DNA of 63,022 nucleotides, filler included, from an uncultured Methanosarcinales archaeon (GTDB lineage: Archaea > Nanobdellota > Nanobdellia > Woesearchaeales > CAZPJY01): assembly GCA_964587045.1 (NCBI GenBank). It is 3 parts of 3 records of this genome, joined end to end, with 100 filler letters (N's around TTAATTAATTAA, not from the genome) between each part and the next. Parts side by side here need not be neighbours in the genome. Positions count along the whole stretch, not along the records: positions 1 to 29,493 come from CAZPJY010000023.1; 2 more parts are not named here. One strand, written 5' to 3'. The notes under the pieces were generated by a model, which did not search any database, was not told where the DNA came from, and saw only the letters and a list, made by a program, of their open reading frames with translations. Made by a program: the position numbers and the translations under genes. Positions 2,220 to 30,119 of the stretch are shown here, in pieces; position 1 is the first letter of the stretch; each line of letters begins with the position of its first letter.

Positions 2220-2227
2220 TGTTGATA

Positions 2228-2747: not shown

Positions 2748-2757
2748 GGTGAAACAA

Positions 2758-4438: not shown

Positions 4439-4490
4439 CCGCAATGATTTTATAGCATCGCTTATGACCAACTAAGTGGGGTGATCTGAA

Positions 4491-9084: not shown

Positions 9085-9086
9085 AA

Positions 9087-9461
9087 ATGGATGTCCCAAA
9101 GGAGCTGAACTATGCTATTGTGGGAGCATCTAATGACACTTCTAAGTACGGCTATATCGTCATGAAGGATTTGATGGAATCAGGATACGACGTCGTACCA
9201 ATCAACCCGAGGGGCGGAAGCATCCTTGGCATGCAGGTTTACACAGCGCTCGAATTCTACGATGGAGACATCGATGTGGTAGTGATCATCGTCCCTCCGG
9301 CCGTAACCGAAAGGATTGTTGAGCAGTGCGCCAAGCTCAAGATCAAGAAGGTATGGATGCAGCCAGGGGCTGAAAGCACGAAGGCGGTCGAATTCTGCGA
9401 GAGGAACGGCATAGAATGCGTTCATGGCAAATGCATCATGGTCGCCCGCAGGACCGGATGA
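9087..9461 (+). CDS. CoA-binding protein (YccU-like)
   Basis: AIVGASNDTSKYG, VPINP, VWMQPG, KCIMV. Confidence 0.9.
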   Translation: MDVPKELNYAIVGASNDTSKYGYIVMKDLMESGYDVVPINPRGGSILGMQVYTALEFYDGDIDVVVIIVPPAVTERIVEQCAKLKIKKVWMQPGAESTKAVEFCERNGIECVHGKCIMVARRTG

Positions 9462-10379
9462 TTACCTGTACCACATCAGGTGGGGTTCCTTTTGGGCCAC
9501 GACCCTCGATGCGACAAAGCTTGCCCAATGGCCGCACTCAACCCAGCTGAACCCCCTCAAGACTCCGTAGAGGAATCCTGCAGCATAGCTGTCACCAGCG
9601 CCATTGGTATTCACGACCTTCGCTGGATAAACTGGAATCACTTCCTCAACCGCCGCATTGCGGCATATTGACCCTTTTGCGCCCATCTTGTATGCAACCA
9701 GCGGGACGTCCACCTCCCACATGGCCCTGCGGTCGCCAATCCCTGTGAATTCCTCACCCTCCTCCTCAGTCATGAACAGCAGGTCAGAGAGCCCTACTGC
9801 CTCTGTTACCTGTTCCCGGTTCCTCCTGATTGCAGCCGGGCTGGCTAGATCGAAGCTCATGAGCAGGCCTTTCCTCTTCGCAACCCTCATGGCCTCGATG
9901 GTGTTGTTGCTAGCGTCGATCTCGTAGGAGGAGGTGTGGAGGATTCTGGGACTCTCAAGCGTTATAGGGTGGATTGTGAACCTGTCAGCGACACCCAAAT
10001 CAGCGTACATGGTCCTCTCGAAATCAGGCGTGACGAATATGACGCTGATGCCGCTGTGCCCCTTCAGGTACTGCACCCAGGTCTCGATGCTCAGGTGCTT
10101 GAGATGGGCCATATATGCATGGCCGTACTCATCATGGGCGAGGGAACCGACGAGCCCGACCTTTTCTCCCATGCTGGCCAGGTTCATCATCGTGTTAGCC
10201 GGCGAGCCTCCAGGGATTACTAAGGCCTTGGACTTTGAGACCAGAAGGTCGATTCCATCACGAGGGACAGAGTTGCTGGGGTTCCACTCCCCCTTGACCA
10301 TCCCTGTTTTGTCCAGCTCTTCATTAGTAACATTGATTATCAGGTCAGTAAGCAGGTTGGATATGCCAAGTATCTCCAT
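9462..10379 (-). CDS. PfkB-family kinase (adenosine kinase-like)
   Basis: PGGSPAN, DEYG, VNTNGAGDSYAAGFLYG; start reassigned to MEILG. Confidence 0.88.
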   Translation of the reverse strand: MEILGISNLLTDLIINVTNEELDKTGMVKGEWNPSNSVPRDGIDLLVSKSKALVIPGGSPANTMMNLASMGEKVGLVGSLAHDEYGHAYMAHLKHLSIETWVQYLKGHSGISVIFVTPDFERTMYADLGVADRFTIHPITLESPRILHTSSYEIDASNNTIEAMRVAKRKGLLMSFDLASPAAIRRNREQVTEAVGLSDLLFMTEEEGEEFTGIGDRRAMWEVDVPLVAYKMGAKGSICRNAAVEEVIPVYPAKVVNTNGAGDSYAAGFLYGVLRGFSWVECGHWASFVASRVVAQKEPHLMWYR

Positions 10380-10414
10380 GTTGGATAGTCGAGAGAGGTA
10401 ACCTATAAACGTTT

Positions 10415-11182
10415 CTACAAGAGGCTGGCGACAGCGTTGATAGTCTTGGATGGGATGTCTTTCATCAGCCTCCAGCTCCTCGCGGGCAGGTCGATGAGCG
10501 TCAGCCCGAAGCATATCAGGATGAACTCTGCGTATATTTGCCAGGGAAGGATCCTCGCTGGTTCGAAGATTGCGTCAGGCAGGGAGTGGTTCAGGATGTG
10601 CACCAAAGAGAACTCGCCAACAAACACTGCTGTGAAGCCTAATAAGTCGCTGTATTCCTTGGCCAGGGTCTGCTTGTTCTTCTCAAGGAAGTGGATCAGC
10701 TTGGCAGGATTCTGGAAATGCTGCAACTGGTGGTTGACAGATGCGCTGAACCGGCCGATCGTTCCGAAATACATCTCCATATGCTGCTTGAACTCCTTTG
10801 CGTCCATCTTCCCCTCAAGGAAAGAGGCTTCCTGCTCCAGGAATGCGTGCTGGGCTGAGAGCAATTCAGAATAGTAGCTGTCGATAAGCTTAAGATGGGC
10901 CTGCTGCTCAGACCAAGTCCTGTCAATGCTGTTGATGAAGCTTTCCACATAGGCCTTGCCGTTCCTTAGGATCTCTAGGACATGCTTCTCCCTCTTGTTC
11001 AGCTGCTTGAGTCTTTCGACGGTGTGGGCCCTCCGTTGGGGTCGGAGACGGGATAGGTAGCTGTTTAGGGATTTGTAGTGTTTGAGCCTCTCCCTGTATA
11101 CCATGTCGTAAATCCTGATGGCCTGATGTGTCTTCTTCTGGATGTGCTCGAAACCTCTCAATGCTTCCATTACACTGCTCAT
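10415..11182 (-). CDS. Hypothetical helical protein with C-terminal hydrophobic segments
   Basis: 255-aa ORF filling the gap; AT-rich promoter region upstream. Confidence 0.6.
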   Translation of the reverse strand: MSSVMEALRGFEHIQKKTHQAIRIYDMVYRERLKHYKSLNSYLSRLRPQRRAHTVERLKQLNKREKHVLEILRNGKAYVESFINSIDRTWSEQQAHLKLIDSYYSELLSAQHAFLEQEASFLEGKMDAKEFKQHMEMYFGTIGRFSASVNHQLQHFQNPAKLIHFLEKNKQTLAKEYSDLLGFTAVFVGEFSLVHILNHSLPDAIFEPARILPWQIYAEFILICFGLTLIDLPARSWRLMKDIPSKTINAVASLL

Positions 11183-11261
11183 GCAAGAACCTTAGTTATT
11201 ATAATTCAAATATTTTTCCATAATCAGAGAATTTTTAAAGCAAGTCAGATTCTCACCTGTC

Positions 11262-12983
11262 ATGAGGGACAATATTTCTGTCATAGGGGTGATACCGCAG
11301 TATCCATCCCATTCCCAGCACAACATTTACGCAAAAGTAAGAATGCCGCCTGTCGGAATCATCTCCGTCCTGAGCCAGCTCGAGGACATGGATATCTATG
11401 CCATAGACGAAAACAACTACGGCGGGCCGCGAGACTTCACTGGGATGCCGGACCACTTCTTCCTGCAGAAGAACAATCCAGCCAAGGTCGCCATGTTCTA
11501 TGGTGGCATGAGCAACTCTGTGCCGCGGCTTTTTTCTGTTGCGCAGCAGTACAAGAAGTGGGGCGCGCTGACCGTGGCTGGAGGCAGCCATGTCGATGCG
11601 CTACCCAAGGAAGCATTGGGCTCGGGAATCGACATAGTCGTCCACGGCGAGGGCGAGGAGACCATTAAGGAGGTTATGGGAAGCATATTCACAAGCGGTG
11701 AGCTCGTCGAGGGCTACAAGAATTTGCTGCGAAGCATTAAAGGGATAAGCTTCATAGACGACAACCAGGAGTACAGGTTCACAGGTGTCAGGGAGCCCAT
11801 CCGGGACCTTGACGGCCTGAAACCCACTGACCTGACCCTCATCAAGCACCTCAGGAAGAGATGGACTGCTATACCTGTGAACCGCGGACGGGGCTGCAAC
11901 TTCAACTGCGAGTTCTGCGTGGTCAACAAGCAGTACGGACGCTTCAAGAGCGCCTCCATCAATTCAGCGCTCCAGCAGGTCATCAAGCATGCTGATATAG
12001 GATACAAAAGTTTCTTCATGACCGACGACAATTTCGCCCAGAACCCCGCGGAGGCCATCGAGCTGTGCAACGCCATAGGAGACTACAAGCGTCAGTTCAA
12101 CAAGAAAATCAGCATAACAGTCCAGGTGAGGACTGAAGTAGCCTACAACGACAAGCTGCTCGAGGCTATGAAATACGCCGGAGTGAATACGCTGGCAATA
12201 GGATATGAGAGCCCAATCAACGAAGAGCTCAAGGCCATGAGGAAGGGTGTGACTGTCGAAAAGCTCATCGAGAGGTCCAAGAAGCTCTCTGAGCACTTCT
12301 ACCTGCATGGCATGTTCATCTTTGGGTACCCGACTTTTAAGGATTCCAAATACAGGTCCAGCTTAACTCTTGAGGAGAGGGCCAAAGCGTACTATAGCTT
12401 CTTTCGGGCCGCAAGGATTGACACGATACAGGTCCTGAACGCCGTCCCCCTTCCTGGTTCAGAGCTCAGGCGCAGGCTCGTGGATGAGGGCCGCATTTTC
12501 CCTCTGGAGATGGTGGGATGGGACAAGTACGATGGCGCCTTCCTCTGCTACGACCCAACCCCTGAAGGGCTGGATGCCTACACCCTCCAGCACCTGCCTC
12601 GGCATCTCATGAAGAAGAGGTATCTGGGCAACTTCGCATCCCGCAACCTCAACTACGGCAACTGGATGACTTGGGTGGGCAACGCCTTGGGCTTCCCGTT
12701 GCAGTTCAGTGCTTTCTATGTCTCAAGGTTCGTCCATGACTCGGTGGAGAGGATGAGGGAGAGGAGGGTGGAGCTGCCGGACAGTAACCTGTTCCATCAG
12801 GCTCTCGTGGAGGCATGGGGAGACATCAAACGGAGATGGAGGAATCTGGGGATCAAAACTTACGCAGGGGAGATTGTCAGAGGATGGATGCGCGAGTACA
12901 AGAAGAGCGACCATGGGAAAAGACTCAGGGAAGCTATATCACAAAGTAAAGGCAAATCGATACCAACGCAATCAGCCCTGTGA
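11262..12983 (+). CDS. B12-binding-domain radical SAM protein
   Basis: RGRGCNFNCEFC, GGSHV, VHGEGE, TDDNF, GYES. Confidence 0.88.
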   Translation: MRDNISVIGVIPQYPSHSQHNIYAKVRMPPVGIISVLSQLEDMDIYAIDENNYGGPRDFTGMPDHFFLQKNNPAKVAMFYGGMSNSVPRLFSVAQQYKKWGALTVAGGSHVDALPKEALGSGIDIVVHGEGEETIKEVMGSIFTSGELVEGYKNLLRSIKGISFIDDNQEYRFTGVREPIRDLDGLKPTDLTLIKHLRKRWTAIPVNRGRGCNFNCEFCVVNKQYGRFKSASINSALQQVIKHADIGYKSFFMTDDNFAQNPAEAIELCNAIGDYKRQFNKKISITVQVRTEVAYNDKLLEAMKYAGVNTLAIGYESPINEELKAMRKGVTVEKLIERSKKLSEHFYLHGMFIFGYPTFKDSKYRSSLTLEERAKAYYSFFRAARIDTIQVLNAVPLPGSELRRRLVDEGRIFPLEMVGWDKYDGAFLCYDPTPEGLDAYTLQHLPRHLMKKRYLGNFASRNLNYGNWMTWVGNALGFPLQFSAFYVSRFVHDSVERMRERRVELPDSNLFHQALVEAWGDIKRRWRNLGIKTYAGEIVRGWMREYKKSDHGKRLREAISQSKGKSIPTQSAL

Positions 12984-13191
12984 ACCACATGAGGAGGGTT
13001 ATCACTCTCGTTTCTGAAATTCCCTTCACCATCTGACGTGAGGTTACCGCTAAGAAGACGGCGATGATGGCTAGGAAGGGTGCGAAGCCGTAATCCCCAA
13101 AGGTCAGCCAAAGCCCTGCAAGTGATATCAGAAGTCCGAGTCCTGCCGCTATGGCCCCAGTGGTGCGCATGTCCTTTTCAAAACTATCCAT
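12934..13191 (-). CDS. Small membrane protein
   Basis: Three hydrophobic segments in 85 aa. Confidence 0.55.
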   Translation of the reverse strand: MDSFEKDMRTTGAIAAGLGLLISLAGLWLTFGDYGFAPFLAIIAVFLAVTSRQMVKGISETRVITLLMWFTGLIALVSICLYFVI

Positions 13192-13277
13192 ACCAGGTTT
13201 TCCAGTTCTGCAGGTTTAAAAAAGTTGGCTTTTGGTTAAATAAAAATTTAATATACCAAAAGGCATCCCCATTTGGC

Positions 13278-13478
13278 ATGTTCGACTGGAAGACAGTGCT
13301 GGATCCCGAGCGGTTCAAGGAGCTCTACAGGAATGGAGCCGGGAAAGGTGTCTATGAGTGCGGGGCTTGCGGAACTCAGCTGTTTGCGAAGAAATACGGA
13401 AAGGATGACGGAATAGAGGTCTCGTGCAGGACCTGCAATGCGAACCTGGGCTATCTGCCCCACTCTTCCGTGAAATAG
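13278..13478 (+). CDS. 66-aa MsrB-like zinc-binding miniprotein
   Basis: WKTVLDPERF, GVYECGACGTQLF, EVSCRTCNANLG follow MsrB motifs in order; TATA-like sequence about 25 nt upstream. Confidence 0.6.
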   Translation: MFDWKTVLDPERFKELYRNGAGKGVYECGACGTQLFAKKYGKDDGIEVSCRTCNANLGYLPHSSVK

Positions 13479-13610
13479 TTGCACGTGCTCACGGCTCCGT
13501 CGAAAACCGCTGCCACATCTGCGTGCCGCGATTCTGTATTGCTAGTTTCGGCATGGCCTGGAGCCGGGCTCACCGATACTTTTTTATTCCAAATGCTCCC
13601 AGTCCTGCCC

Positions 13611-13940
13611 ATGGCCCACCCGCCGGCGTTTTTCTTCGTCCTGATTGTCGGAGAGAGCATGCTCCACTTCCTTGCGCCGGAGCAGGTGCTGCACAGGTAC
13701 GTAACCTACTTGGGATTGATTCCACTCGCCCTTGGCATCTGGCTCTACATCTGGGGCAACAAATCCGCCCGCATCGGCAGGCATCCGACCTACCTGGCCA
13801 TGCTCTCTATACTAATTGGGGAGGCCATCCTGCTCGGCTCGGTAGTGAGCTTCCTCGGCCCTGCTATGTTCGTCATAGTCATCGAGTTACTGATCATGCG
13901 GGGCAAGAAGCAGATCCTGGATTTCCTCTTCGGGATTTGA
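13611..13940 (+). CDS. Internally deleted ICMT/PEMT-like membrane protein
   Basis: RHPTYL..LIGEAILLGS resembles the paralog at 18732; GPFR and C-terminal motifs are missing. Confidence 0.55.
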   Translation: MAHPPAFFFVLIVGESMLHFLAPEQVLHRYVTYLGLIPLALGIWLYIWGNKSARIGRHPTYLAMLSILIGEAILLGSVVSFLGPAMFVIVIELLIMRGKKQILDFLFGI

Positions 13941-15170
13941 CTACTCATACCTCAATGCGTCGACAGGCTTCAGCCGAGAGGCTTGGTATGCTGGAACGAT
14001 TCCTGCGAGGATTCCCACTCCCATGGACACGGTCAAAGCGAGCACCATAGAGTTGACTGACACCACAGTGTTTGCAAACATCCTAACTCCATTCATGAGT
14101 GCCGGCAGGAAGCCGGAAAGGATGATCCCAAACATTATTCCGAGTATCCCGCCCACCAGCCCGATGAGCATGGAGTTGAACAAGAATATGAGCATGATGT
14201 CCCTGTTCCTGGCGCCTATCGCCTTCATGATCCCTATCTCCTTGGTCTTCTCCAGCACCGACGTGAACATCGTATTCGCTATACCGACGGCGCCGACTAT
14301 CAACGACACGCCGGCAATCGCTAGGAGGAATGTGTTTATCGAAGACATCATCGAGGTCCGCGTCTCGTTGAACTGGGCGTTGGAACTGACGGTGAAATCC
14401 TTGGTCTTCTCGGTCACATGCCTGCTGATCATGAGCTTATCCGTAATCTTGGTGACTGTCTCGTCCAGCTTGTTCTCATCCTTAATCTTCACGATTATGG
14501 AATCGTACACGCCGTTCTCTTTGTCCGTCAGGAGGTTGTAAGCCATCTGGATTGGCATGTAGATACTGGTGCTCGTATCGTCTAGGATGCCGACTATCCT
14601 GTAGATGTTGCCCTCTATGGTGAGCATCTTGTTGACGCCCAGGGGCTGGTCGAAGTAGGTGTCAGCGAGCCTGCCCCCGATGACGATCGTGTTTTGGTCT
14701 GCCGGCCCGAGCATGCGGCCGTCCCTTATTTTTTCTGTCGTTATCTCAGACCAGACCTTCTGGTCGACTCCGGTAAGGCTCACGGTTCCTGATTTCCCGA
14801 GGTAAGTGACCTCGACGTTGCCTCTGACTTGGGGGTCTATCAGCTCGATTTCCGGTATGCCGCGCAGCACTTGGACATCCTTTCTGTCGACCACGACCTT
14901 CTCAGCCGTCGCTGAGGCGCTGCCGAAGCCGCTGTCCCCGAACCTGCCCATCATGTTGAACCCCCTCGAGAAGCCCGCGGTGATGGTCACGATGTCCATG
15001 CCGAAGTCCCCGAACTGGGTGTTCATCTCTGCTTCCATGCCCGCGCCTAAAGACATGATGGCAACGACCGCACCAACTCCTATCACTATGCCGATGATGG
15101 TCAGCCAGCTTCGCAGCCGGCTGTGCAGGACCATGCTGAAAGCATGCTTGAGCACTTTGTGTAGCTTCAT
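13941..15170 (-). CDS. MacB/FtsX-family ABC permease
   Basis: LRSWLTIIGIVIGV, SVLEKTKEIGIMKAIGA, ASRLKPVDALRYE. Confidence 0.93.
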   Translation of the reverse strand: MKLHKVLKHAFSMVLHSRLRSWLTIIGIVIGVGAVVAIMSLGAGMEAEMNTQFGDFGMDIVTITAGFSRGFNMMGRFGDSGFGSASATAEKVVVDRKDVQVLRGIPEIELIDPQVRGNVEVTYLGKSGTVSLTGVDQKVWSEITTEKIRDGRMLGPADQNTIVIGGRLADTYFDQPLGVNKMLTIEGNIYRIVGILDDTSTSIYMPIQMAYNLLTDKENGVYDSIIVKIKDENKLDETVTKITDKLMISRHVTEKTKDFTVSSNAQFNETRTSMMSSINTFLLAIAGVSLIVGAVGIANTMFTSVLEKTKEIGIMKAIGARNRDIMLIFLFNSMLIGLVGGILGIMFGIILSGFLPALMNGVRMFANTVVSVNSMVLALTVSMGVGILAGIVPAYQASRLKPVDALRYE

Positions 15171-16426
15171 CTGCGCCTGAATAGCCTGAACTGCGGGTTT
15201 CGCATCTTCTTCTTGCGGTACCATCCCCTGAAAACAAACAGGAGAACCAAGGCTGCGAAGCCGAGGATGTACCATCTGTACTGGTCCCACGGGCTCGACT
15301 GCTGGACAAATGTGCCTCTCTGCCTGAAGTTACTGCTGAACTGGGTTGCATTCGCAGTGCTTGTGGTGGCACCGTAATCTACCTCTTTGATTACAGTCTG
15401 CCTTGCGCCCTTGGTATCCGTGTAGTCGACTCTGATATCGATTGTTGATTGCAGCTGCCTGTTATCGGTCGGCTTCCGCTGAATAGTGTAGCTGGCCACA
15501 GTGTAGTCGCCTTTGTCGAGGTTGCCGATTATTGCGGAGCTTGATCCGGTCACAGCCCACCCGTCCTGGTTTGGCACCGATACGACGACTGAGTAGGAGG
15601 GGTTGGAACCGATGTTTGCGATGCTGAACGAAGTCTCTCCGTCGCTGGTATCAGAGTATGAAACGTCGAAGTCGGTCGCGCCTCCGACATATATCCCTGC
15701 GATGGTGTTTATCACCTTGTCAGAACCTGTTGACGACTCCTCATACGCAAGCGAGAGGTCAAGCCTGTACAGGCCCGGGACCGCGTCTGAGTCTGCCACG
15801 ACCTCATAGGTCACGTCCTGACTCTGTCCGACGTCGAGATTATTGATGTACTTCATGTTGTCGCTGCCGACGGGGAGGATGACGCTGTCCTCGTTTTGCC
15901 AGGAGAACGACAGGTCACGTAGGGACGAGCTTCCCACGTTGGTGATCCTGAAGGTCAGGTTGGTGTTCTTACCTGGGAGCAGGTCAGTCTTGTCGATGTG
16001 GATGATCTCAGCGCTCTCTTTGTTACGGACATCTAGCATTATGCTCTGCTCGAGCATGACATCCTGGTTGGCGCTTTTGGTTCCAACTGTGAGTGAGTAA
16101 GTCCCTGCAGAGGCTTCCGGGTCGATCTTTACCTTGAACTTCACTATCTTCGATTGCTCATCGCTTTGGTAGGCCGTGAGTGTTCCAACATTGATAGTGC
16201 TGGCCTGTCCCGAAGGTATGGAGAAAGGATATGTGGGAATGATCTGCATCACTATGTCTTCTATAGGGTTCTTTCCAGTGTTTTCGAAAGCGAGCCGGAG
16301 TTCGACCAGATCACCTGCATCGCCGGGGTCCGGGTTCTGGTTGACCAGGCTTACTGACAGCGCGCCTTGCACCATTGGGACCATCAGGACGATTAGTATT
16401 CCGATTATTAATAGGTGTGATTTCAT
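15167..16426 (-). CDS. COG1361 S-layer-domain protein
   Basis: Signal peptide, NQNPDP..GD.VELR, Ig-like repeats, C-terminal TM and basic tail. Confidence 0.8.
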   Translation of the reverse strand: MKSHLLIIGILIVLMVPMVQGALSVSLVNQNPDPGDAGDLVELRLAFENTGKNPIEDIVMQIIPTYPFSIPSGQASTINVGTLTAYQSDEQSKIVKFKVKIDPEASAGTYSLTVGTKSANQDVMLEQSIMLDVRNKESAEIIHIDKTDLLPGKNTNLTFRITNVGSSSLRDLSFSWQNEDSVILPVGSDNMKYINNLDVGQSQDVTYEVVADSDAVPGLYRLDLSLAYEESSTGSDKVINTIAGIYVGGATDFDVSYSDTSDGETSFSIANIGSNPSYSVVVSVPNQDGWAVTGSSSAIIGNLDKGDYTVASYTIQRKPTDNRQLQSTIDIRVDYTDTKGARQTVIKEVDYGATTSTANATQFSSNFRQRGTFVQQSSPWDQYRWYILGFAALVLLFVFRGWYRKKKMRNPQFRLFRRR

Positions 16427-17106
16427 GATGACACCTCCTTGATTATTTGTCCATCTTTGAGTTCTATCCTTGTATGAGCGTACTTGGCAAGATTGAGGTC
16501 GTGCGTGACCATGATGATGGTCTTGCCGTCCTTCCACAGCTTGGTCAGGGTCTCCATCAGGTTCTTCCCGGTGACGCTGTCCAGCGCGCCCGTGGGTTCG
16601 TCTGCCAGTATAATCTCCGGGTCAGCTGCGAGACTTCTCGCTATGGAGACCCTCTGCTGCTGGCCGCCTGAGAGCTGCGTCGGAAGGTGGTGTGACTTGT
16701 CTTCGAGATCAACGACTTTGATTATCTCCTTGACCCTCCTGACAGCCTCGCGCTCCGGCATCTCGAGGAACTCGAGGGGTAGCATGATGTTTTCGAATGC
16801 TGTGATGGACGGGATCAGGTTGTACTGCTGGAAGACAAATCCGATTGTATGCCCCCTGAAGAGGGCAAGGTTGGATTCGGATAGCTTGCTGATGTCCTTG
16901 CCCTTGAGAAATACCTTCCCTTGGGTTGGGATGTCGAGGCATCCGATCAGGTTCATGAGAGTTGACTTGCCGCTGCCTGAAGCGCCTATCACCACGACGA
17001 AATCTCCCTGTTTTATCTCAAGGCTGATGTCCTTAAGGGCGGGCACCTTGACCTGGCCCATCTTGTAGGTCTTCCACACGTTCTCAAGCTTTATGAGTGG
17101 GGCCAT
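16423..17106 (-). CDS. LolD/MacB-type ABC ATP-binding protein
   Basis: GASGSGKST, LSGGQQQR, ILADEPTG, VTHD. Confidence 0.95.
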   Translation of the reverse strand: MAPLIKLENVWKTYKMGQVKVPALKDISLEIKQGDFVVVIGASGSGKSTLMNLIGCLDIPTQGKVFLKGKDISKLSESNLALFRGHTIGFVFQQYNLIPSITAFENIMLPLEFLEMPEREAVRRVKEIIKVVDLEDKSHHLPTQLSGGQQQRVSIARSLAADPEIILADEPTGALDSVTGKNLMETLTKLWKDGKTIIMVTHDLNLAKYAHTRIELKDGQIIKEVSS

Positions 17107-23391: not shown

Positions 23392-23904
23392 ATGGAGACC
23401 CTGGAAGCCATCCGGACTCGTAGGAGCATCCGATCTTTCAAGAGCAAGGACGTGCCTGAACGCGTTCTGAAGCAGGTCCTGGAAGCCGGGATGATGGCGC
23501 CCTCAGCAGGGAACCAGCAGCCCTGGCACTTCGTCGTCATCAGGGACAGGGAGATGCTCGATTCCATTCCTTCCTTTCACCCGTACTCAATCATGGTCAG
23601 GCAGGCGCCGATGGCAATCCTGGTCTGCGCAGACCACGAGCTCGCGTCGCGGCACCACGACTTCTGGGTGCAGGACTGCTCGGCGGCTGTCCAGAACATG
23701 CTGCTCGCCATCCACGACCTTGGGCTTGCGGCTGTCTGGGTGTCTTCGTACCCGAACAAAGAGAGAGTGGCAGGCTTTCGGAAACTGTGCAGTCTGCCTG
23801 ACTCGGTCGATCCGCTCGCTTTGGTGGTGCTGGGCTACTCTGACCAGAAGGGCGGGAAGGTTGAGAGGTTTCGAGCTGAGAGGGTGCACCACAACACCTG
23901 GTGA
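23392..23904 (+). CDS. Nitroreductase-family protein
   Basis: RRSIRSF, APSAGNQQPWHF, QNMLLAIHDLGL. Confidence 0.93.
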   Translation: METLEAIRTRRSIRSFKSKDVPERVLKQVLEAGMMAPSAGNQQPWHFVVIRDREMLDSIPSFHPYSIMVRQAPMAILVCADHELASRHHDFWVQDCSAAVQNMLLAIHDLGLAAVWVSSYPNKERVAGFRKLCSLPDSVDPLALVVLGYSDQKGGKVERFRAERVHHNTW

Positions 23905-23906
23905 GC

Positions 23907-24221
23907 CTATCGCCTGCAATCGTCGCGGTAGGTTTCTAGCACGTACATGGATAGGCAAGCGTCAAGGTCAAATCTTTTTGGCCTTTTGAATACCTTACCC
24001 GTCTTCTTCTTGGCCTCATGATACTGCTTTAGGACTTGCTTTAATGTTCCTTTGGTCTCAAAGTCGCTGTAGATTTCAGATGACCTGTGGACGGTGACGT
24101 GCCTGAAGTACTCTGCCCAGCCTGGCCCATAGTCCTTTTCTGCGTAAATGTACTGGCCTATGTAGGTCAGCCCGTTTGGCATGTCGTAGGCCCTCAGCTG
24201 TATTAATTTCTTAACCATCAT
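23907..24221 (-). CDS. Small paralog 3 of tandem DMPNG family
   Basis: LRAYDMPNGLTYIG, HRS.EIYSD.ETKGTLKQVLKQYH, YVLETYRDD. Confidence 0.75.
   Translation of the reverse strand: MMVKKLIQLRAYDMPNGLTYIGQYIYAEKDYGPGWAEYFRHVTVHRSSEIYSDFETKGTLKQVLKQYHEAKKKTGKVFKRPKRFDLDACLSMYVLETYRDDCRR
24022..24059. repeat. 38-bp exact direct repeat, copy 1 (copy 2 at 24349-24386)
   Basis: tactgctttaggacttgctttaatgttcctttggtctc is identical in both paralogs. Confidence 0.9.
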
Positions 24222-24224
24222 AAA

Positions 24225-24539
24225 TCAACTTTTGTGTTGCTCGATATCGTCGCGGTAGGTCTCTAGCACGTGTATGGCAAGATAAGCATCATCATTGAAC
24301 CAATCAATGCTACCCGCTACTTTGCCTTCCTCTTTCCTGGCCGCGTGGTACTGCTTTAGGACTTGCTTTAATGTTCCTTTGGTCTCGAGGTCGCTGTAGA
24401 TTTCCCAGGACCTGTGGATAGTCACCTTCCTGAAGTATCTGTCCCAGCAGAATTGACGCTGTACGGAGATGTAGTTACCTATGTAGGTCATTCCGTTGGG
24501 CATGTCGTAGGCCCTCAGCTGTTGTATCAGTTTTACCAC
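24225..24539 (-). CDS. Small paralog 2 of tandem DMPNG family
   Basis: LRAYDMPNGMTYIG ... HVLETYRDD; GTG start 24539 inferred by alignment (track gives 24554). Confidence 0.75.
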   Translation of the reverse strand: MVKLIQQLRAYDMPNGMTYIGNYISVQRQFCWDRYFRKVTIHRSWEIYSDLETKGTLKQVLKQYHAARKEEGKVAGSIDWFNDDAYLAIHVLETYRDDIEQHKS

Positions 24540-24540
24540 A

Positions 24541-24819
24541 TCAATCGCCCTCAAGGACGTACATGGCGAGGGCCTTGCTGGGCCTGAAGTCCGGAATCCG
24601 CTCGACTGCGTGCCCTTGCCATTTCATCGACTTGTGTTGTTCCTTCATCTTATCGATGATTGTATCATAATCAGTGCTTACGTTGAGTTTCCTATCGATA
24701 TAGTTCTTAGTTGGCAACTTCACAACATCATAGAAGGTCCTCACGCCTGATGGGAAGAGGTTCATCCTGCCGATGTAGGTAAGCCCGTTGGGCATGTCGA
24801 AAGCGTAGAGTCCCATCAT
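24541..24819 (-). CDS. Small paralog 1 (divergent) of DMPNG family
   Basis: LYAFDMPNGLTYIG ... ALAMYVLE; ATGA overlap with the zinc-finger stop. Confidence 0.72.
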   Translation of the reverse strand: MMGLYAFDMPNGLTYIGRMNLFPSGVRTFYDVVKLPTKNYIDRKLNVSTDYDTIIDKMKEQHKSMKWQGHAVERIPDFRPSKALAMYVLEGD

Positions 24820-24929
24820 GCTCCCTCCTCTATCCTTTGCGGGTAGTCGAACCGCCTCTTGCATCTGGGGCAGGCTTTCGGGCTTTCCACCCTCGGTGTC
24901 CATTCATATGTGCAGTATTCGCATTCCAT
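24816..24929 (-). CDS. 37-aa CxxC..CxxC zinc finger (MECEYCTYEWTPRVESPKACPRCKRRFDYPQRIEEGA), not in ORF track
   Basis: Hand translation; GGAGTGA RBS; fills the operon gap exactly. Confidence 0.8.
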   Translation of the reverse strand: MECEYCTYEWTPRVESPKACPRCKRRFDYPQRIEEGA

Positions 24930-24934
24930 TCTTA

Positions 24935-25501
24935 TCACTCCGGTATCGGTTTTTCTGAGACGAAGCCCTCAAATGTGTAGATTGTCTTGTGCTTCGACTC
25001 GTTTGCGTTCCTATCTATGGCGTAGACCTCAAGCTGCTGCTTGCCGGTCAGGTATTCCTTCGGGACCTTGAATGACGCGCTCTCAACGTCAAACCTTCCC
25101 TTAGGAAGCTCATGTATGCTGTTGCCCTGTTTGGCGTATGAGCGCATCCCGACTGCGTTGTCGTCGAAGAATATCAGGTACCATCCGTTTGAGAAATTAG
25201 CAGGAAACCTGAATTCGGGTGCTTTTCCCGCATTCCCCCTGCCCATTTCTTGGTAATCAGTCTTTGCCTTGGGTCGGTCCATCTCTACTTTAATGGGATC
25301 AGCAGACTTGTAGCTTCCTCCGAGGAAGCCTAGCCCCAACCCTGCAAAGAATAGCGCAGCGCCGGCAAATGCGGCCCATGAAGACATTTTCTTTTTTGCC
25401 TCAAGCATTTGCTCAAGAGTCCTGTCCGTGTTTTGTAGTTGTTTGCTCAGTGGAGTGGGATCCACTGTTCCCTTATTTCTTTTCCTTCTGTGTTGTAGCA
25501 T
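24935..25501 (-). CDS. Single-TM protein with C-terminal Ig-like beta domain
   Basis: GAGGTGA RBS before ATG 25501; TM WAAFAGAALFFAGLGLGFLG; GKQQLEVYAIDRNANES. Confidence 0.65.
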   Translation of the reverse strand: MLQHRRKRNKGTVDPTPLSKQLQNTDRTLEQMLEAKKKMSSWAAFAGAALFFAGLGLGFLGGSYKSADPIKVEMDRPKAKTDYQEMGRGNAGKAPEFRFPANFSNGWYLIFFDDNAVGMRSYAKQGNSIHELPKGRFDVESASFKVPKEYLTGKQQLEVYAIDRNANESKHKTIYTFEGFVSEKPIPE

Positions 25502-25511
25502 TTTTTTCACC

Positions 25512-25814
25512 TCATTCAACATCGATACCCAACAGTAAGTCATACAGTGAGTCTGCGAGATTCTTGCAGTCCTTGTCCTGGACAGCTTTCTCTATTCTCT
25601 TCCAGTCATTAGCATAGTAGGCTACGTATGCGGACCTGGCACTGATGTCGATGTCCCTGATGGTCCGGCATGCGTCCCAGATTTCCTCCGCGCGCTGCTC
25701 CAGAGGTGGAAGTTCTTGTTTCTTCACGTTCCGACCAAGGAACGGGAACTCGCTTTTCAGCCAGTCCCTCAGCTCGTATCTGTGGTGGTACTTGTATGAA
25801 AACGTCTCCATCAT
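25512..25814 (-). CDS. Hypothetical 100-aa helical protein
   Basis: ATGA overlap with the stop of PafA-like copy A. Confidence 0.65.
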   Translation of the reverse strand: MMETFSYKYHHRYELRDWLKSEFPFLGRNVKKQELPPLEQRAEEIWDACRTIRDIDISARSAYVAYYANDWKRIEKAVQDKDCKNLADSLYDLLLGIDVE

Positions 25815-27115
25815 AATTTTCCTTTCTGATACTTTTGATACTTTTTGACCTCTTGCCTGGCCTTCTTCAGTTTTTCTGAATACGTTGAGTATGGATCTAT
25901 CATATGGAAATTGTACACCTTGAGACAATGTGTTAAGAAGCATGGCTCTGGACCTATATCCCATTCGGTGTTATAAAATACTCTATCACCAACGGTTTTG
26001 CTAATTTCCTCGGAGCACAGGAGATTGATGATGTGTCCACGGTAGTATGCCCTTGTGTCCTTTGGAGGATTTTTAGTGGCCTTCTCAATCATCTTGTCCG
26101 TTGTCAGCCGCTCCACTTTGCCCTGTTTTTGGAGCGCGTAGAAGAGGCCCCTTTCGCGGTCGGTGTCGTGGTATTGCAGGTCGATGTTCCTGAGGATTGG
26201 GTCGGACATATTGAGGTTGTGGCTTTCGGCGTACTGGTCTATCAGGGCCTTCTTGGTCACCCAGTCGAGGCGGCCCACCAGCTCTGTAGGGTTTCGGTCG
26301 AGCTTTTCAAGCGTGTCCTCCCACAGGGTAAGGATTGTGTCGGTTATCTCGTCACGCTGCTTATACCTTGTTTTAGCAGCTTTTAGGAACTCGCACTGGA
26401 TGTCCACTGCTTTGGCAGTTTTGTCGGTTCCGTGGACCATCCAGTCTGAGGTAGTCATGGCTATCTCTTCCAAGTCTTCCTCAATCTTCTCCATGTCGTA
26501 GGGAATGTTAGGCAGCGCCCCGTCCTCTGAGAGGTCCAGAACGAGGCCTGTGGTTCCGAGCTTGAGGAATCCAGCCACCTCGTTCATGTTCGCGTCTCCG
26601 TACATGTAATGGAATCGTATCTCCCTAGATGCAATGCTACTCATAGACAGCATGCCACAAAATATTTCACTGCTCCCCAGCAGCTTTTCCACCCGTTGGA
26701 ATATTTGGAATGTTCCGTGGGATGAAAGCCGGCCTGAACCGTCTATGATAGGTCTGGTCACTAGGAAGGGTATCATCTTTTCATCCCGCATCGTGAAATC
26801 ATAATTCTCATGGGTACCAAAAGTATTGCCTTGCGAGTCGATGTTGTTTTTGTATATCTTGTCTGCGTGCTTCTGTACCAGCAGCTCGCCTGCCTTGTCG
26901 TAGATTACCGCTTCGAGTGGGTTGCTGCACTCGGGCGTCGCGTACTCAATATGGCCACAGTCCACATAGATCCTACCTCCGTTGTATTGGAATTCTTGTT
27001 CCCCATCAAAATTCCAATCTGCCCCTACCGCACCGTACTCGTTCTCGATCCCGAAGATGCGTTTCCTCTTGTACTCTGGAACCTTCTTGAAAAGGGCTTG
27101 CTTGGAATGCTTCAC
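25811..27115 (-). CDS. Pup-ligase/depupylase (PafA/Dop)-family protein, copy A
   Basis: RIFGIENEYG, NGGRIYVD..HIEYATPEC, YKNNIDSQGN.FG.HENY, PFLVTR, RFH...GDANM, LKLGTT, LDWVTK, DLQYHD, PPKDTRA, W, DPY. Confidence 0.92.
   Translation of the reverse strand: MKHSKQALFKKVPEYKRKRIFGIENEYGAVGADWNFDGEQEFQYNGGRIYVDCGHIEYATPECSNPLEAVIYDKAGELLVQKHADKIYKNNIDSQGNTFGTHENYDFTMRDEKMIPFLVTRPIIDGSGRLSSHGTFQIFQRVEKLLGSSEIFCGMLSMSSIASREIRFHYMYGDANMNEVAGFLKLGTTGLVLDLSEDGALPNIPYDMEKIEEDLEEIAMTTSDWMVHGTDKTAKAVDIQCEFLKAAKTRYKQRDEITDTILTLWEDTLEKLDRNPTELVGRLDWVTKKALIDQYAESHNLNMSDPILRNIDLQYHDTDRERGLFYALQKQGKVERLTTDKMIEKATKNPPKDTRAYYRGHIINLLCSEEISKTVGDRVFYNTEWDIGPEPCFLTHCLKVYNFHMIDPYSTYSEKLKKARQEVKKYQKYQKGKL
26156..26257. 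repeat. 102-bp near-identical block shared by the PafA-like copies (other copy 28978-29079)
   Basis: Three mismatches by manual alignment. Confidence 0.88.
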
Positions 27116-27501
27116 AGTTCCATCACCTTTATCAGGTCGGAGAGCTCATCGTAGCTGATGCTCTTCCTCTCCTCGAAGATGAAGTAAAGCCTGTTCAGCA
27201 GGTCCACCCTTACCTGGTCCTTGGTCACCTTCCGGATGGCCTCGAAGTCGAGCTCTTTCTCTTCTGCTTCGTATCGAGCGTACCTCCCACACTGCTCGGA
27301 GAGGTATTTGTTCCTCTCCTCAGCTATGGCTTGCTTGAAGTGTAGCAGCCTGATAATCTCGACGCCCAGATGGTGGTCGCCGCCATCGACATAGTCATTG
27401 ATTGCCTTGTTCACAACCTTAACAGGGGCGTGCTTGCCGATCCTGTTCGGGAACTTCTCCTGAATATCCTTGTCGTAGATCCTTAGACTTTCTTCCATCA
27501 T
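27112..27501 (-). CDS. Hypothetical 129-aa protein
   Basis: 4-nt overlaps with both neighbours. Confidence 0.7.
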   Translation of the reverse strand: MMEESLRIYDKDIQEKFPNRIGKHAPVKVVNKAINDYVDGGDHHLGVEIIRLLHFKQAIAEERNKYLSEQCGRYARYEAEEKELDFEAIRKVTKDQVRVDLLNRLYFIFEERKSISYDELSDLIKVMEL

Positions 27502-28175
27502 GGTCCCTCATCTTTTGGGTAAGCTTCTCGCATTAGCGAGTGCAGGTCAAGCATTATGTCTATGAAATTTGATACCATGCGGTTCTGCGTGAGCAGCAGC
27601 TTTTCGTTGTTACTTATGATCCTCTCAATCTTCCCTTTCCTTCCCTGTTTTTTCTCAGCAATCTTCCTGAGCTTCATGTTCCCAACCCTTAAAGCCTTGA
27701 ATGCGATGTCATAGCATCCGAGCTCGGATTCGACGAACCTGTCGATGCCGTACTGGTCAAGGGCTCTTGCGAAGCTGTAGGCGAACGCATCGAATTCCGT
27801 CATCGATGCTTCGAGTTTTGCGTTTGCCTTCAGTTTCCACCTCTCGGCGCAGACTATTTCGCGGAGCTCGCATTTCTGCCGCTCGTAGGCCTTCATCTGG
27901 TCCAGGCCTTTCCTGCCTAGAGTGAGGAGCAGTCCGATCCTGGTCTGGAACGGCACGTTCGCCTTTCCCTTGTACATCTGCTTGTTGTTCTTCAGGAGTG
28001 CTTTTTCCGAGTAAGCTTCTGAGAAGATTTTACTCTCCCTTTTCGTTATCGACTTCTCCTTCACGAGGCTTTCCAGCGAGTCCTGGAGAGCCCGCCTGTC
28101 TACCTGCGTCTCCTGCTCAGCGATTCTTCCGTAGAAGGCGTCCAAGCATTCCTGGGTGAAGTTAGGCACTTGCAT
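27498..28175 (-). CDS. Hypothetical helical 225-aa protein
   Basis: Overlaps both neighbours; charged, helical composition. Confidence 0.7.
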   Translation of the reverse strand: MQVPNFTQECLDAFYGRIAEQETQVDRRALQDSLESLVKEKSITKRESKIFSEAYSEKALLKNNKQMYKGKANVPFQTRIGLLLTLGRKGLDQMKAYERQKCELREIVCAERWKLKANAKLEASMTEFDAFAYSFARALDQYGIDRFVESELGCYDIAFKALRVGNMKLRKIAEKKQGRKGKIERIISNNEKLLLTQNRMVSNFIDIMLDLHSLMREAYPKDEGP

Positions 28176-29493
28176 CACCCATTAATATTGATATTATCTT
28201 ATCCCTTCCATCAAGAACATCTTGTCGTCCCAGTATGAATTCGTCTGCTAATTCCGCGATTTCCTGTTTGATGGAGTTTGATATGGATGGGCTGTTTAGG
28301 ATGTCTTCCATATTGGCCTGTTTTGTAACCTTGTATCCCCTGACCTCCCCTGCTTGGAATTTTACGAGTTCTCTATTGTCTAACCGGGCGATGACAGCTT
28401 TGCCCCCATCTTCAACCTGCTTTATGGTGCCGAAGCTGTCCTTTTTCACGAAATTGGCATAATATCCGTGTTCACACTCGCTTTCATACCTGAAATGGTC
28501 CCCTCTTGGTCCCTTAACCTTTATCCTGTCACCTTTCTTCAGGCAGAATACCGGAGCCCAATGCAGGTTCAGCAATTTATTGTATTCGGAAGAATCGATT
28601 ATTTTTCTTTGTATTATGTCAGTCATAATTTTTTCTTCGAACGATGCCAATTCATCCTTTCCCAACACCCTGATTACAGTCTCATAGTACTTTTCAGGGT
28701 TGAATTTGATAGTGCCGCTGATGAGACTATTTACGAAATCTCTGACACTCATTGGATCGTTTTCGAAGGGGTCAACGAAGCTCGGAAAAATATTATCATA
28801 GCACTCGTACGAATCCCAATTGACATATTTAATGATATGTGGGTGACACAGCATTTTCACCCTGATATTTGCGCGTGTGTCCTTAGGAGGCTCTTGCACT
28901 GCGTGCTCTATCATCTCGTCTGTTACCAGCCGCTCGACCTTGCCCTGTTTTTGCAGCGCATAGAACAGGCCCCTTTTGCGGTCGGTGTCGTGGTATTGCA
29001 AGTCGATGTTCCTGAGGATCGGGTCGGACATATTGAGGTTGTGGCTTTCGGCGTACTGGTCGATCAGGGCCTTCTTGGTGATCCAGTCAACGCGTCCGAC
29101 GAGCTCTGACTGGTCTTGGTCGAGCTTGTCCAAGGTGTCTTGCCAAAGTTTCAGTATCACATCTGTTATTTCATCACGCCCTTCATACCTCCTCGCTTCT
29201 TTTAGGTAAGCGCGCTGGACATCGGTCGCCTTGCGTCTAGTGATCCGGCAACCCTTACTTGCCGAATTGAAATAGACCAACCAGTCTTTAGCTTGTTTTG
29301 AGATGCGCTTTAGGTCTAGTATTACCTGCATTTGGTTATAGTAGAAATACCTTCCGTCGCTGAAGGGCAATGATTTGTCCTCTATCAGGTCCATTACCAG
29401 ACCTGTGGTCCCGAGCTTCAGGAACTCAGCGACCTCTGACATGTTGGCATCTCCTAATAGTAGATGATGCCTTCTAAAGTTCACGACTTCATA
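28162..29493 (-). CDS. PafA/Dop-family protein, copy B, 5' part lost at contig end, with C-terminal extension
   Basis: RRHHLLLGDANMSEVAEFLKLGTT, VDWITK, DLQYHD, PPKDTRA, VNWD, VDPF; frame open up to the gap. Confidence 0.88.
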   Translation of the reverse strand, partial: YEVVNFRRHHLLLGDANMSEVAEFLKLGTTGLVMDLIEDKSLPFSDGRYFYYNQMQVILDLKRISKQAKDWLVYFNSASKGCRITRRKATDVQRAYLKEARRYEGRDEITDVILKLWQDTLDKLDQDQSELVGRVDWITKKALIDQYAESHNLNMSDPILRNIDLQYHDTDRKRGLFYALQKQGKVERLVTDEMIEHAVQEPPKDTRANIRVKMLCHPHIIKYVNWDSYECYDNIFPSFVDPFENDPMSVRDFVNSLISGTIKFNPEKYYETVIRVLGKDELASFEEKIMTDIIQRKIIDSSEYNKLLNLHWAPVFCLKKGDRIKVKGPRGDHFRYESECEHGYYANFVKKDSFGTIKQVEDGGKAVIARLDNRELVKFQAGEVRGYKVTKQANMEDILNSPSISNSIKQEIAELADEFILGRQDVLDGRDKIISILMGDASA

Positions 29494-29593
29494 NNNNNNN
29501 NNNNNNNNNNNNNNNNNNNNNNNNNNNNNNNNNNNNNTTAATTAATTAANNNNNNNNNNNNNNNNNNNNNNNNNNNNNNNNNNNNNNNNNNNN
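29494..29593. other. Artificial contig linker
   Basis: 100 nt of N with central TTAATTAATTAA (stops in all six frames). Confidence 0.97.
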
Positions 29594-29594
29594 G

Positions 29595-30119
29595 AAAAGA
29601 CAGAAGCTTCCTCATGTACTATCAAAAAAGGACATATTGGCCATGATTGGTTCGACAACGAATGTGAAGCACAAAATCATCGTTGAACTGCTATACTCGA
29701 CAGGGATCAGATTGCAGGAGCTAGTCAACCTGCGTTATGAGGATATAGATTGGGAAAGCAGGACAATCCATGTCAAGAATGGTAAAGGACACAAAGACCG
29801 AATAAGCATTGTAAGTCAGAGAGTCCTGTCCAGACTTGATTCCCGAGGCAAAGGCCTTGTGCTGCAGGGTAGGAAGGGTAAATACAGCAAGAAATCGGTT
29901 CAGATGGTTGTCGATAAACTGGCCCAGAAAGCAGGAATTCGACGTAAAGTGACACCTCACCTCCTTCGTCACTCATTCGCAACACATTTATTGGAGAAAG
30001 GCACTGATCTTCGATATATCCAGGCATTACTAGGCCACAGAAGGCTTGAAACAACCCAGATATATACAAGAGTAGCAAAGAACAAGCTCAGCAATATTGA
30101 AAATCCTCTGGATGGATAG
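29595..30119 (+). CDS. Tyrosine recombinase (XerA/XerD-like), 5' partial
   Basis: KLPHVLS, YSTGIR, GKGHKDR, HLLRHSFATH, LLGH, TTQIY, ends NPLDG. Confidence 0.93.
   Translation, partial: KRQKLPHVLSKKDILAMIGSTTNVKHKIIVELLYSTGIRLQELVNLRYEDIDWESRTIHVKNGKGHKDRISIVSQRVLSRLDSRGKGLVLQGRKGKYSKKSVQMVVDKLAQKAGIRRKVTPHLLRHSFATHLLEKGTDLRYIQALLGHRRLETTQIYTRVAKNKLSNIENPLDG

Follow-up and report, generated by a model that had tools for sequence, protein, structure and literature searches.

A candidate Pup-type protein-tagging operon, probably split by an assembly gap, in a DPANN archaeon

Gene content of the locus

This study concerns a cluster of ten genes that includes two members of the Pup-ligase family (PafA and Dop; Pfam PF03136) and lies at the end of a contig from an uncultured archaeon (GenBank assembly GCA_964587045.1; GTDB order Woesearchaeales), here called G000. 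The window, that is, the whole stretch of DNA analyzed (63,022 nucleotides), consists of three concatenated contigs with artificial spacers at 29494–29593 and 58733–58832, both of which read N44-TTAATTAATTAA-N44 and are not genomic sequence. The cluster belongs to the first contig, C23, which corresponds in full to window positions 1–29493. The G000 genome comprises 1.6 Mb in 50 contigs (completeness 100, contamination 0.53%). Ten co-oriented, tightly packed open reading frames (ORFs) occupy its minus strand from 29484 to 23907, in the order given by the original prediction from the sequence:

28162–29493, minus strand: C-terminal part of the Pup-ligase-family paralog PL3, 443 codons (PF03136; ORF called at 28162–29484), cut by the end of C23
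27498–28178, minus strand: p226, 226 amino acids (aa), no named family; a 217-aa homolog lies upstream of a p100 homolog in genome G293
27112–27501, minus strand: p129, a 129-aa orphan with no family and no homolog in the fetched loci
25811–27115, minus strand: PL4, full-length 434-aa Pup-ligase-family paralog (PF03136, E 2.4e-85) of the archaeal PL2-type clade
25512–25814, minus strand: p100, 100 aa, modeled as all-helical, C-terminus IDVE; undescribed family (profile search and AlphaFold2 (AF2) model)
24935–25543, minus strand: p202, single-pass membrane protein with a ~120-aa C-terminal domain; hydrophobic stretch WAAFAGAALFFAGLGLGFLGG in the translation
24816–24938, minus strand: 40-aa zinc-ribbon protein (CxxC...CxxC), 71% identical to an ORF of locus L122
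24541–24903, minus strand: DMPNG paralog 1, likely start at 24819 according to paralog alignments
24225–24554, minus strand: DMPNG paralog 2, 63% identical to paralog 3
23907–24221, minus strand: DMPNG paralog 3, which closes the operon and converges with a nitroreductase gene (23392–23904)
29494–29593, no strand: artificial contig-joining spacer

Adjacent genes overlap by 4 nt or are separated by 3–10 nt, as had been predicted, provided that internal starts are used for p202 and the first DMPNG gene; when the longest ORFs are taken, overlaps reach 14–32 nt at some junctions. Both predicted PafA/Dop-like genes match PF03136 (E 2.4e-85 for PL4 and 2.7e-52 for PL3), but the one described as a whole gene, 'PafA-like B', is a fragment: position 29493, the end of C23, splits PL3, and its match is limited to profile positions 223–439 of 441. 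Because C23 ends there, the integrase fragment and the MFS transporter that come next in the window are not true neighbors of PL3. The truncated integrase at 29637–30119 seems to face the ligase fragment; it belongs to another contig, and the adjacency is not real.

Upstream genes on a second contig

Exactly five PF03136 matches were found genome-wide, two on C23 and three on contig C15. The last of the C15 matches consists of the N-terminal 162 codons of PL3 (G000:C15:44654-45139; profile positions 70–212) and is 3'-truncated by the end of C15, while the C23 fragment is 5'-truncated at its own contig end and matches it in orientation. With both halves aligned to the paralogs, no more than a few residues are missing between them. 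Judged from these sequences, C15 and C23 very probably adjoin, with PL3 as one gene across the gap. For window positions 28900–29493, word shares of 0.19 and 0.12 were obtained in two DNA sequencing runs; no RNA run was listed.

On C15, one strand carries a 481-aa AAA ATPase, PL1 (~599 aa), a 60-aa Pup-like ORF, PL2 (582 aa) and the 5' part of PL3. The original prediction had reported no pup, ARC or proteasome genes beside the ligases and had proposed an operon without pupylation machinery. The former is true within the window; because C23 ends at 29493 and C15 holds the upstream genes, however, the apparent lack is an artifact of the contig break. The latter does not stand: once C15 is joined, the genes immediately upstream encode an ARC-like ATPase, a Dop-like enzyme and a Pup with a GGQ terminus. 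The upstream block that the original prediction had itself named as its refutation is thus largely present. Adjacency of prcB/prcA to pup was not found, prcBA being the only component missing from the block.

Ahead of the ATPase gene, C15 carries a divergently oriented AbrB/PhoU-like regulator gene as well as genes for two Ser/Thr kinases, a vWA protein and additional AAA and unknown proteins. Just upstream of the Pup cluster, a co-oriented block at G000:C15:25172-38447 (L008:33-13308) encodes proteins of 316 aa and 598 aa (the latter an AAA protein), three unknown proteins (460, 760 and 212 aa), a vWA protein and one of 219 aa; the two Ser/Thr kinases come next. This block may form an NTPase/vWA module of its own or regulate the Pup system. 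GC content dips mildly across the cluster (0.45–0.51 versus ~0.53). Neither a tRNA nor an integrase gene was found beside the cluster on C15 or C23, nor was a sharp compositional boundary; with no such flanking genes and with the window integrase assigned to another contig, we rejected the idea of a mobile island.

Pup candidate and ARC-like ATPase

The 60-aa ORF between PL1 and PL2 ends in ...LADQYKQQGGQ. Pup has been defined by a length of 50–90 residues, a C-terminal G[EQ] and a gene beside a PafA-family gene (Iyer, Burroughs and Aravind 2008; passages of PMC2588565), and the ORF has the length, the ending and the neighboring gene. Homologs occupy the same position in six related loci (G394, L121, L122, L124, L125 and L040) and end in GGQ, SGQ or SAQ. 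A profile of 7 archaeal Pup-like ORFs aligned with a profile of 9 bacterial Pups in hhalign at 91% probability (E 1.1e-6) over the last 31 residues, through the C-terminus; the same archaeal profile reached only 23% against 58 UBact sequences from the fetched loci.

Locus L040 (CAYUKJ010000178.1, 2368 bases) had been binned as 'uncultured Methanosarcinales'. This short contig pairs a PL1-type gene (57% identity to PL1) with a downstream Pup whose C-terminus reads ...SYIQQGGQ, and it probably represents a DPANN fragment assigned to the wrong bin.

Among NCBIfam models, the ATPase matches TIGR03689 (pup_AAA) best, with 381.6 bits over positions 29–509 of 512, as compared with at most 221 bits on PAN models. 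It also gave weak matches to proteasomal-ATPase OB domains. Its C-terminus in G000, ...AAYR, is HbYX-like in appearance, an ending that is not kept in relatives.

Four paralogs of the Pup-ligase family

All ligase-family proteins of the cluster scored well above the PF03136 gathering cut-off of 25 bits: PL1 reached 451.6, PL2 337.3, PL4 287.6 (profile positions 71–430 of 441) and the PL3 fragment 178.7 bits. For PL1, the best NCBIfam model was Dop (TIGR03688, 413.0 bits), with PafA 82 bits lower at 331.

Active-site residues were compared in an alignment of 33 sequences using AcelDop numbering, with PL4 additionally aligned to the Dop structure 4B0R. Passages of PMC8599861 list E8, E10, Y92, E99, H155 and H241 as Mg/ATP ligands, D94 as catalytic and R227, in the motif NTRDEP, as a 'highly conserved' phosphate-binding residue. 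PL1, PL2 and PL4 all retain E8, E10, Y92, D94, E99, H155, R205, R239 and H241, and each half of PL3 carries the motifs within its covered part. At R90, PL1 and PL4 keep the Arg and PL2 has Lys. The R227 segment reads NTRDEP in PL1, CTKKES in PL2 and YNIK, at the contig end, in PL3.

The Dop-loop is described, again in passages of PMC8599861, as 40–65 residues before strand beta2 that are present in all Dop and absent from PafA. At this site, archaeal PL1-type enzymes have 74–121 residues and bacterial Dop 72–87, whereas bacterial PafA-like enzymes have 43–57 (10 of 11 rows, the eleventh being N-terminally truncated) and PL2-type enzymes 20–29. Since 94 residues separate the GxExE and YxD motifs of PL1, we assign to it a long insert at the Dop-loop position, a likeness judged by position and length. 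PL2-type enzymes have no Dop-loop, as in PafA. PL1-type enzymes feature a second insert of 74–97 residues, and PL2 and PL3 carry C-terminal extensions of ~200 aa (~215 aa in PL3).

Phylogenetic relationships were studied with a quick tree of 43 rows and a careful tree of 27 rows, both unrooted and with a poorly resolved backbone. PL1 formed one archaeal clade (support 100/99) with its counterparts from G394, L040, L121, L122, L124 and L125. PL2, PL3 and PL4 fell into a second clade (98/94), starred in the tree, together with the second paralogs of G394, L121, L122 and L124 (suffix _b) and the solitary homologs L127, L130 and L142. Neither archaeal clade nests within the bacterial Dop or PafA-like clades, so the distinctness expected for these ligases was borne out. 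PL2, PL3 and PL4 group together in both trees (SH-aLRT 96 in the quick tree, only 88/40 in the careful one), which suggests a lineage-specific triplication.

The solitary PL2-type homologs, ~40% identical, lie on metagenome contigs at L127:9199-10596, L142:9959-11284 and L130:4235-5605, with no ARC, Pup or p100 gene nearby. Because these three are solitary, the PL2-type clade also extends outside Pup clusters.

Archaeal host and recurrence of the cluster

An archaeal origin of the operon, as originally proposed, is supported by other genes of the assembly. A small-subunit ribosomal RNA (SSU rRNA) fragment on C34 scored 775 bits on the archaeal model versus 570 on the bacterial one, and C15 itself carries genes of the aIF5B, Trm1 and ABCE1 types. 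G000 also encodes archaeal-type 20S alpha and beta subunits (C14 and C38), as well as Cdc48 (C21) and, on C40, an ATPase of the PAN-like kind (488.8 bits). Because C15 carries archaeal informational genes, we assign the complete Pup-type system to a DPANN (Nanoarchaeota-like) archaeon.

The neighborhood recurs in other DPANN contigs, in agreement with the original prediction. ARC, the Dop-like enzyme, Pup and a PL2-type ligase are retained together in G394, L121, L122 and L124. In L122 and L124 the order is ARC, PL1-type, Pup, PL2-type and p100; L121 has the same order without p100. L125 contains the Dop-like enzyme, Pup and a PL2-type ligase, with p100 before the ligase and no ARC gene within the available stretch. 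Identities to G000 proteins amount to 57–63% for ARC (L121, L122 and L124), 39–48% for Pup and 48–57% for the ligase (both L121, L122, L124 and L125). L122 additionally has the regulator, a kinase and the 40-aa zinc ribbon in common with G000. Because L125 includes a third PF03136 gene (747 aa), extra ligase-family copies are not unique to G000.

Close relatives of the ligases at NCBI, named 'PafA2 family protein', come from metagenome-assembled genomes (MAGs) of Nanoarchaeia, Nanoarchaeota and Aenigmarchaeota. The nearest named non-DPANN relatives, at 31–38% identity, belong to Nitrospirota, Nitrospinota, Actinomycetota and Desulfobacterota. In most of the bacterial loci that we fetched, two PF03136 paralogs lie ~2 kb from each other, and the Dop-type one is followed by a UBact or Pup gene. 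Viral contigs contained no relative of the PL2-type ligase.

Pupylation has been described for Actinobacteria and sporadically for a few other bacterial phyla, only bacterial lineages being listed in the relevant passages of PMC2588565; excerpts of a 2025 review (PMC12288473) mention archaea only in connection with proteasomes. A full-text literature search retrieved no paper describing pupylation in archaea. Because annotation pipelines label the DPANN MAG relatives 'PafA2 family protein', the homologs are present in databases and yet, as far as searched, undescribed. With pupylation regarded as a bacterial invention, an ARC–Dop–Pup–ligase set in an archaeon with its own 20S, PAN and Cdc48 raises the question of how a bacterial tag couples to an archaeal proteasome.

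The p100 and p226 module

A profile search of p100 against 1.84 billion representatives collected 65 proteins at E ≤ 1e-3, 36 of them at E ≤ 1e-10. Among the 45 family members with a match reaching the profile end, 41 stop exactly there (39 with Glu and two with Gln) and four run on. The AF2 model of p100 (pLDDT 96.5) is a compact, all-helical bundle, with the last helix extending to residue 99. Its comparison by Foldseek (PDB) and a wide VIA-align search gave generic helical bundles only (best Z 7.8); the Mycobacterium tuberculosis proteasome activator Bpa ranked 32nd (Z 6.7), within helical-bundle noise. The NCBIfam 'XXXCH domain' (TIGR04358) matched one of 36 members (E 4.8e-4), under its cut-off, which we took as chance. 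Three repetitive proteins in the family (P0024, P0036 and P0060) are probably spurious matches. Pfam revealed no informative fused domain in the long family members, and a word-indexed protein search with p100 returned the window's own protein only. A predicted complex of PL4, p100, ATP and two Mg scored 0.00 in both runs, with the controls not folded, a result that speaks neither for nor against an interaction.

The p100 gene directly follows a PL2-type gene in G000, L122 and L124, directly precedes one in L125 and also lies beside a ligase remnant in G335. In this last case (L031, G335:C65, 4469–5294), the remnant has 76 codons with one in-frame stop nearby, while the p100, transmembrane-protein and regulator genes are intact, as in a decaying copy of the cluster.

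Within the phylum sample, p100 family members occur in 8 of 401 genomes, including G000. In the two strong cases, G293 and G117, PF03136 gave no match, and the p100 genes lie beside tandem-ThiF E1-like enzymes. The G117 cluster additionally encodes a JAB peptidase and an AAA ATPase, the best G000 match of which is the ARC-like gene (36% over 465 aa). The C-terminal extension domain of PL2 (RNLG...YYGG...VPLxxKG) is homologous to the N-terminal domain of G117 p100-like fusions (E 1.9e-11). For p226, no Pfam, NCBIfam, PADLOC or PHROG family and no usable ESM Atlas match were found; by BLASTP, it aligns over 210 aa at 30% identity (E 1e-20) with the 217-aa product of the gene immediately before the p100 homolog in the G293 ThiF cluster. 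Because homologs occur in both contexts, p100 and p226 constitute a module common to Pup-ligase and E1-like systems, which may act as an adaptor or second tag. Its association with both kinds of system, together with the near-invariant terminal Glu, marks it as a candidate for a new tag or adaptor.

Further members of this gene group were observed elsewhere. In L212 (G117:C1:10000-29999), a cluster of E1-like (tandem-ThiF), JAB and ARC-like AAA genes at ~8800–16800 includes five ORFs (six matched places) that contain the p100 N-terminal half, and three of these ORFs (282–290 aa) start with a beta-rich 'RNLG-YYGG' domain; the cluster resembles a conjugation system, as yet undescribed, in which an adaptor or substrate family has expanded. 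G000 itself has tandem-ThiF E1-like clusters at G000:C11:16719-21288 and G000:C6:17299-19876, with enzymes homologous to those beside p100 in G293 and G117, and the partner in the C11 cluster resembles the G117 JAB-domain protein. A divergent second p100-family gene at G000:C7:2974-3255 (L213; 93 aa, ending in IKWE) is located beside a TrmB-type regulator, away from the ligase genes.

Remaining small genes and flanking sequence

The three DMPNG proteins were rightly predicted to be paralogs: they are 34–63% identical pairwise, with ratios of nonsynonymous to synonymous substitution rates (dN/dS) of 0.29–0.41. For paralogs 2 and 3, the identity is 63% (62% over the codons aligned for dN/dS) and the ratio 0.30. 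The sequences are under purifying selection. Among the searched sequences, DMPNG genes occur only in this genome, an alignment search returning the window's own proteins only. An AF2 model of paralog 3 from three sequences (pLDDT 46) was unusable, and paralog 2 had no usable ESM Atlas match.

The predicted zinc finger corresponds to the 40-aa ORF, with two CxxC pairs; its 40-aa counterpart in L122 lies beside the ARC gene. For p202, neither a Pfam or NCBIfam family nor homology to the transmembrane proteins of related clusters was detected, and p129, p202 and the DMPNG proteins showed no similarity at E < 0.1 to neighbors in related clusters. PADLOC and PHROGs gave no match for the ligases or small proteins.

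Away from the cluster, an oxidative-stress block at window 2219–5704 of this small genome comprises Fur, Fe/Mn superoxide dismutase, ferritin, two AhpC/TSA peroxiredoxins and rubrerythrin.

Interpretation and alternatives

We consider it likely that the ten genes represent the distal part of a single operon of ~16 genes that encodes Pup-type tagging in a DPANN archaeon and is broken by an assembly gap in PL3. The order would be ARC-like unfoldase, PL1, Pup, PL2, PL3, p226, p129, PL4, p100, the transmembrane protein, the zinc ribbon and three DMPNG genes. By homology with the actinobacterial pathway, PL1 would deamidate the C-terminal Gln of Pup to Glu, and a PL2-type enzyme would phosphorylate the gamma-carboxylate with ATP and ligate Pup to target lysines. 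The ARC-like ATPase would then recognize Pup and unfold the targets, probably feeding the archaeal 20S of the cell, and PL1 would also remove Pup. As putative recent duplicates with different C-terminal domains, PL2, PL3 and PL4 could be ligases with divided target ranges; PL4, without the phosphate-binding Arg segment and beside p100, may be a weakened or regulatory copy. The reading that the sequence data support best is a Pup-type system that a DPANN lineage has either acquired or long possessed.

Several observations weigh against this interpretation. Single-sequence searches of Pfam and the PDB do not detect the Pup candidate, and four proteins fall short of the relevant equivalog cut-offs. 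The ATPase (381.6 bits) is below that of TIGR03689 (504.75) and PL1 (413 bits) below that of Dop (492.3), as are Dop-type genes of Nitrospirota, Nitrospinota and Desulfobacterota (414–485 bits). On the PafA model (TIGR03686, cut-off 551.3), PL2 reaches 262.6 and PL4 209.9 bits, while second paralogs of Nitrospirota and related bacteria, at 312–346 bits, are also far under the cut-off. PL2-type enzymes score slightly better on the Dop than on the PafA model and stand apart from the bacterial PafA-like clades in the trees; because of both, the direction of the PL2-type reaction could be either ligation or hydrolysis. PL4 lacks the R227 segment (25 residues versus 31–34 in the others), and PL2 and PL3 have Lys there, a difference that bears on activity and not on homology. 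As to the join, the C15 and C23 ends share no exact overlap and we infer their adjacency; a second assembly of the same organism (L120 and L123, 99.9–100% identical) likewise breaks inside PL3 and provides no bridge. Assemblies break there probably because the ligase paralogs share stretches with 85–93% nucleotide identity. Proteasome genes are unlinked to the cluster, PF00227 matches being confined to C14 and C38. PF03136 is sporadic (one of 40 additional genomes from the order and 8 of 400 from the phylum sample), and the kinase, vWA and AAA neighbors fit a conflict role as well as a housekeeping one.

The foremost alternative, which we regard as doubtful, takes the cluster for a conflict (antiviral or host-interaction) system in which the ligases tag foreign proteins and DMPNG, p129 and the transmembrane protein are fast-evolving specificity or effector parts. 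It would account for the patchy occurrence, the lineage-specific triplication of the ligases and the orphan tandem DMPNG paralogs, which had no counterpart elsewhere in the searches. Two Ser/Thr kinases, vWA and AAA proteins lie just upstream, a kinase is kept beside the L122 cluster, and the kinases match defense-associated kinase models, if only generically. Set against these points are the lack of PADLOC or PHROG matches for the ligases and small proteins, the absence of PL2-type relatives from viral contigs, the mildness of the GC dip and the flanks on C15 and C23, which show no integrase, tRNA or sharp compositional boundary.

Somewhat less probable still, and not mutually exclusive with a conflict role, is that p100 serves as a second protein tag, with the neighboring PL2-type ligase activating its terminal Glu or Gln for attachment to lysines, and with an E1-like enzyme taking this part in genomes that lack Pup ligases. 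The C-terminal constancy of the family speaks for this, as does its alternation between Glu and Gln, which is known for Pup (Iyer 2008; passages of PMC2588565). The gene adjoins a PL2-type gene in G000, L122, L124 and L125, whereas in the PF03136-free genomes G293 and G117 it lies beside ThiF-type E1-like genes, joined in G117 by JAB and ARC-like AAA genes; the first 8 kb of the G293 cluster contig contain no ORF of 40–130 aa ending in Gly. The domain shared between the PL2 C-terminus and the G117 fusions points the same way. However, the modeled helix runs to residue 99, leaving no flexible tail as in Pup or ubiquitin, the operon already has a canonical Pup gene, and L121 and G394 have a ligase without p100. 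Moreover, the neighboring ligase is PL4, the copy without the R227 segment, and none of the G117 fusion proteins has a terminal Glu. It is accordingly unlikely, in our estimate, that a folded four-helix p100 with an [ILV]-[DE]-x-Glu-COOH end is a new kind of tag and that the paralogs divide Pup and p100 tags and target classes among themselves. If true, this would be the first pupylation-type network with several ligases and several tags, and also the first from an archaeon.

The original prediction favored PafA/Dop-like enzymes repurposed without Pup, ARC or proteasome, possibly as a new tagging pathway. A further tagging function remains compatible with the present data, but such repurposing is contradicted by them: although no such genes occur within window 23907–29493, C15 carries ARC-like, Dop-like and Pup genes and the genome encodes a proteasome, PAN and Cdc48, which makes this explanation highly improbable. 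Bacterial contamination or a chimeric bin, suggested by the bacterial affiliation of the nearest named non-DPANN relatives, has still less to recommend it, given the archaeal/eukaryotic-type aIF5B, Trm1 and ABCE1 on C15, the low estimated contamination, the homologous clusters in other genomes of the same order and class, the close relatives in Nanoarchaeia, Nanoarchaeota and Aenigmarchaeota MAGs and the separate clades formed by the archaeal enzymes.

Comparison with known systems

Prokaryotic E1-like/JAB conjugation operons include archaeal SAMP/UbaA-type systems. The present cluster resembles them in that p100 and p226 homologs occur in tandem-ThiF clusters of related DPANN archaea, with JAB and an ARC-like AAA protein also present in G117. 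It differs from them in its glutamine-synthetase-fold ligases in place of an E1 and in that no beta-grasp modifier was identified in the operon.

With the UBact/Pup systems of Nitrospirota, Nitrospinota and Desulfobacterota, the cluster shares ligase relatives at 31–38% identity, PF03136 paralogs (two there, four here) and a small modifier with a terminal Glu or Gln encoded after the Dop-type gene. The UBact modifier, in contrast, ends in ...RQRTG[EQ], and it is Pup, not UBact, that the archaeal profile matches. The Pup ligases of Plesiocystis and Rhodopirellula, as covered in passages of PMC2588565, offer a parallel for Pup and ligase genes that are unlinked to proteasome genes and have membrane protein genes nearby; there, transmembrane segments are inserted in the ligases, whereas the archaeal cluster has separate transmembrane-protein genes and an ARC-type ATPase.

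Resemblance to the actinobacterial Pup–proteasome system extends to the ARC-type ATPase, the Dop-type enzyme carrying a long insert in the Dop-loop position, the ~60-aa Pup ending in GGQ beside the Dop gene, and PF03136 ligases that lack the Dop loop and retain the Mg/ATP ligands and catalytic Asp. Unlike its actinobacterial counterpart, the system described here belongs to an archaeal host, has no prcBA in the cluster and coexists with 20S, PAN and Cdc48 encoded elsewhere in the genome. The PL1-type enzymes have a second insert of 74–97 aa, and p100, p226, transmembrane, zinc-ribbon and DMPNG genes are added. In actinobacteria, PafA is described as the sole ligase (abstracts of PMC6476560 and PMC12053664), whereas the archaeal cluster encodes three ligase-like paralogs, which belong to a clade of their own and have a still shorter loop; PL2 and PL3 also bear C-terminal extensions of ~200 aa. 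Set against the actinobacterial single-ligase rule, paralogs with different appended domains would amount to a natural experiment on target choice.

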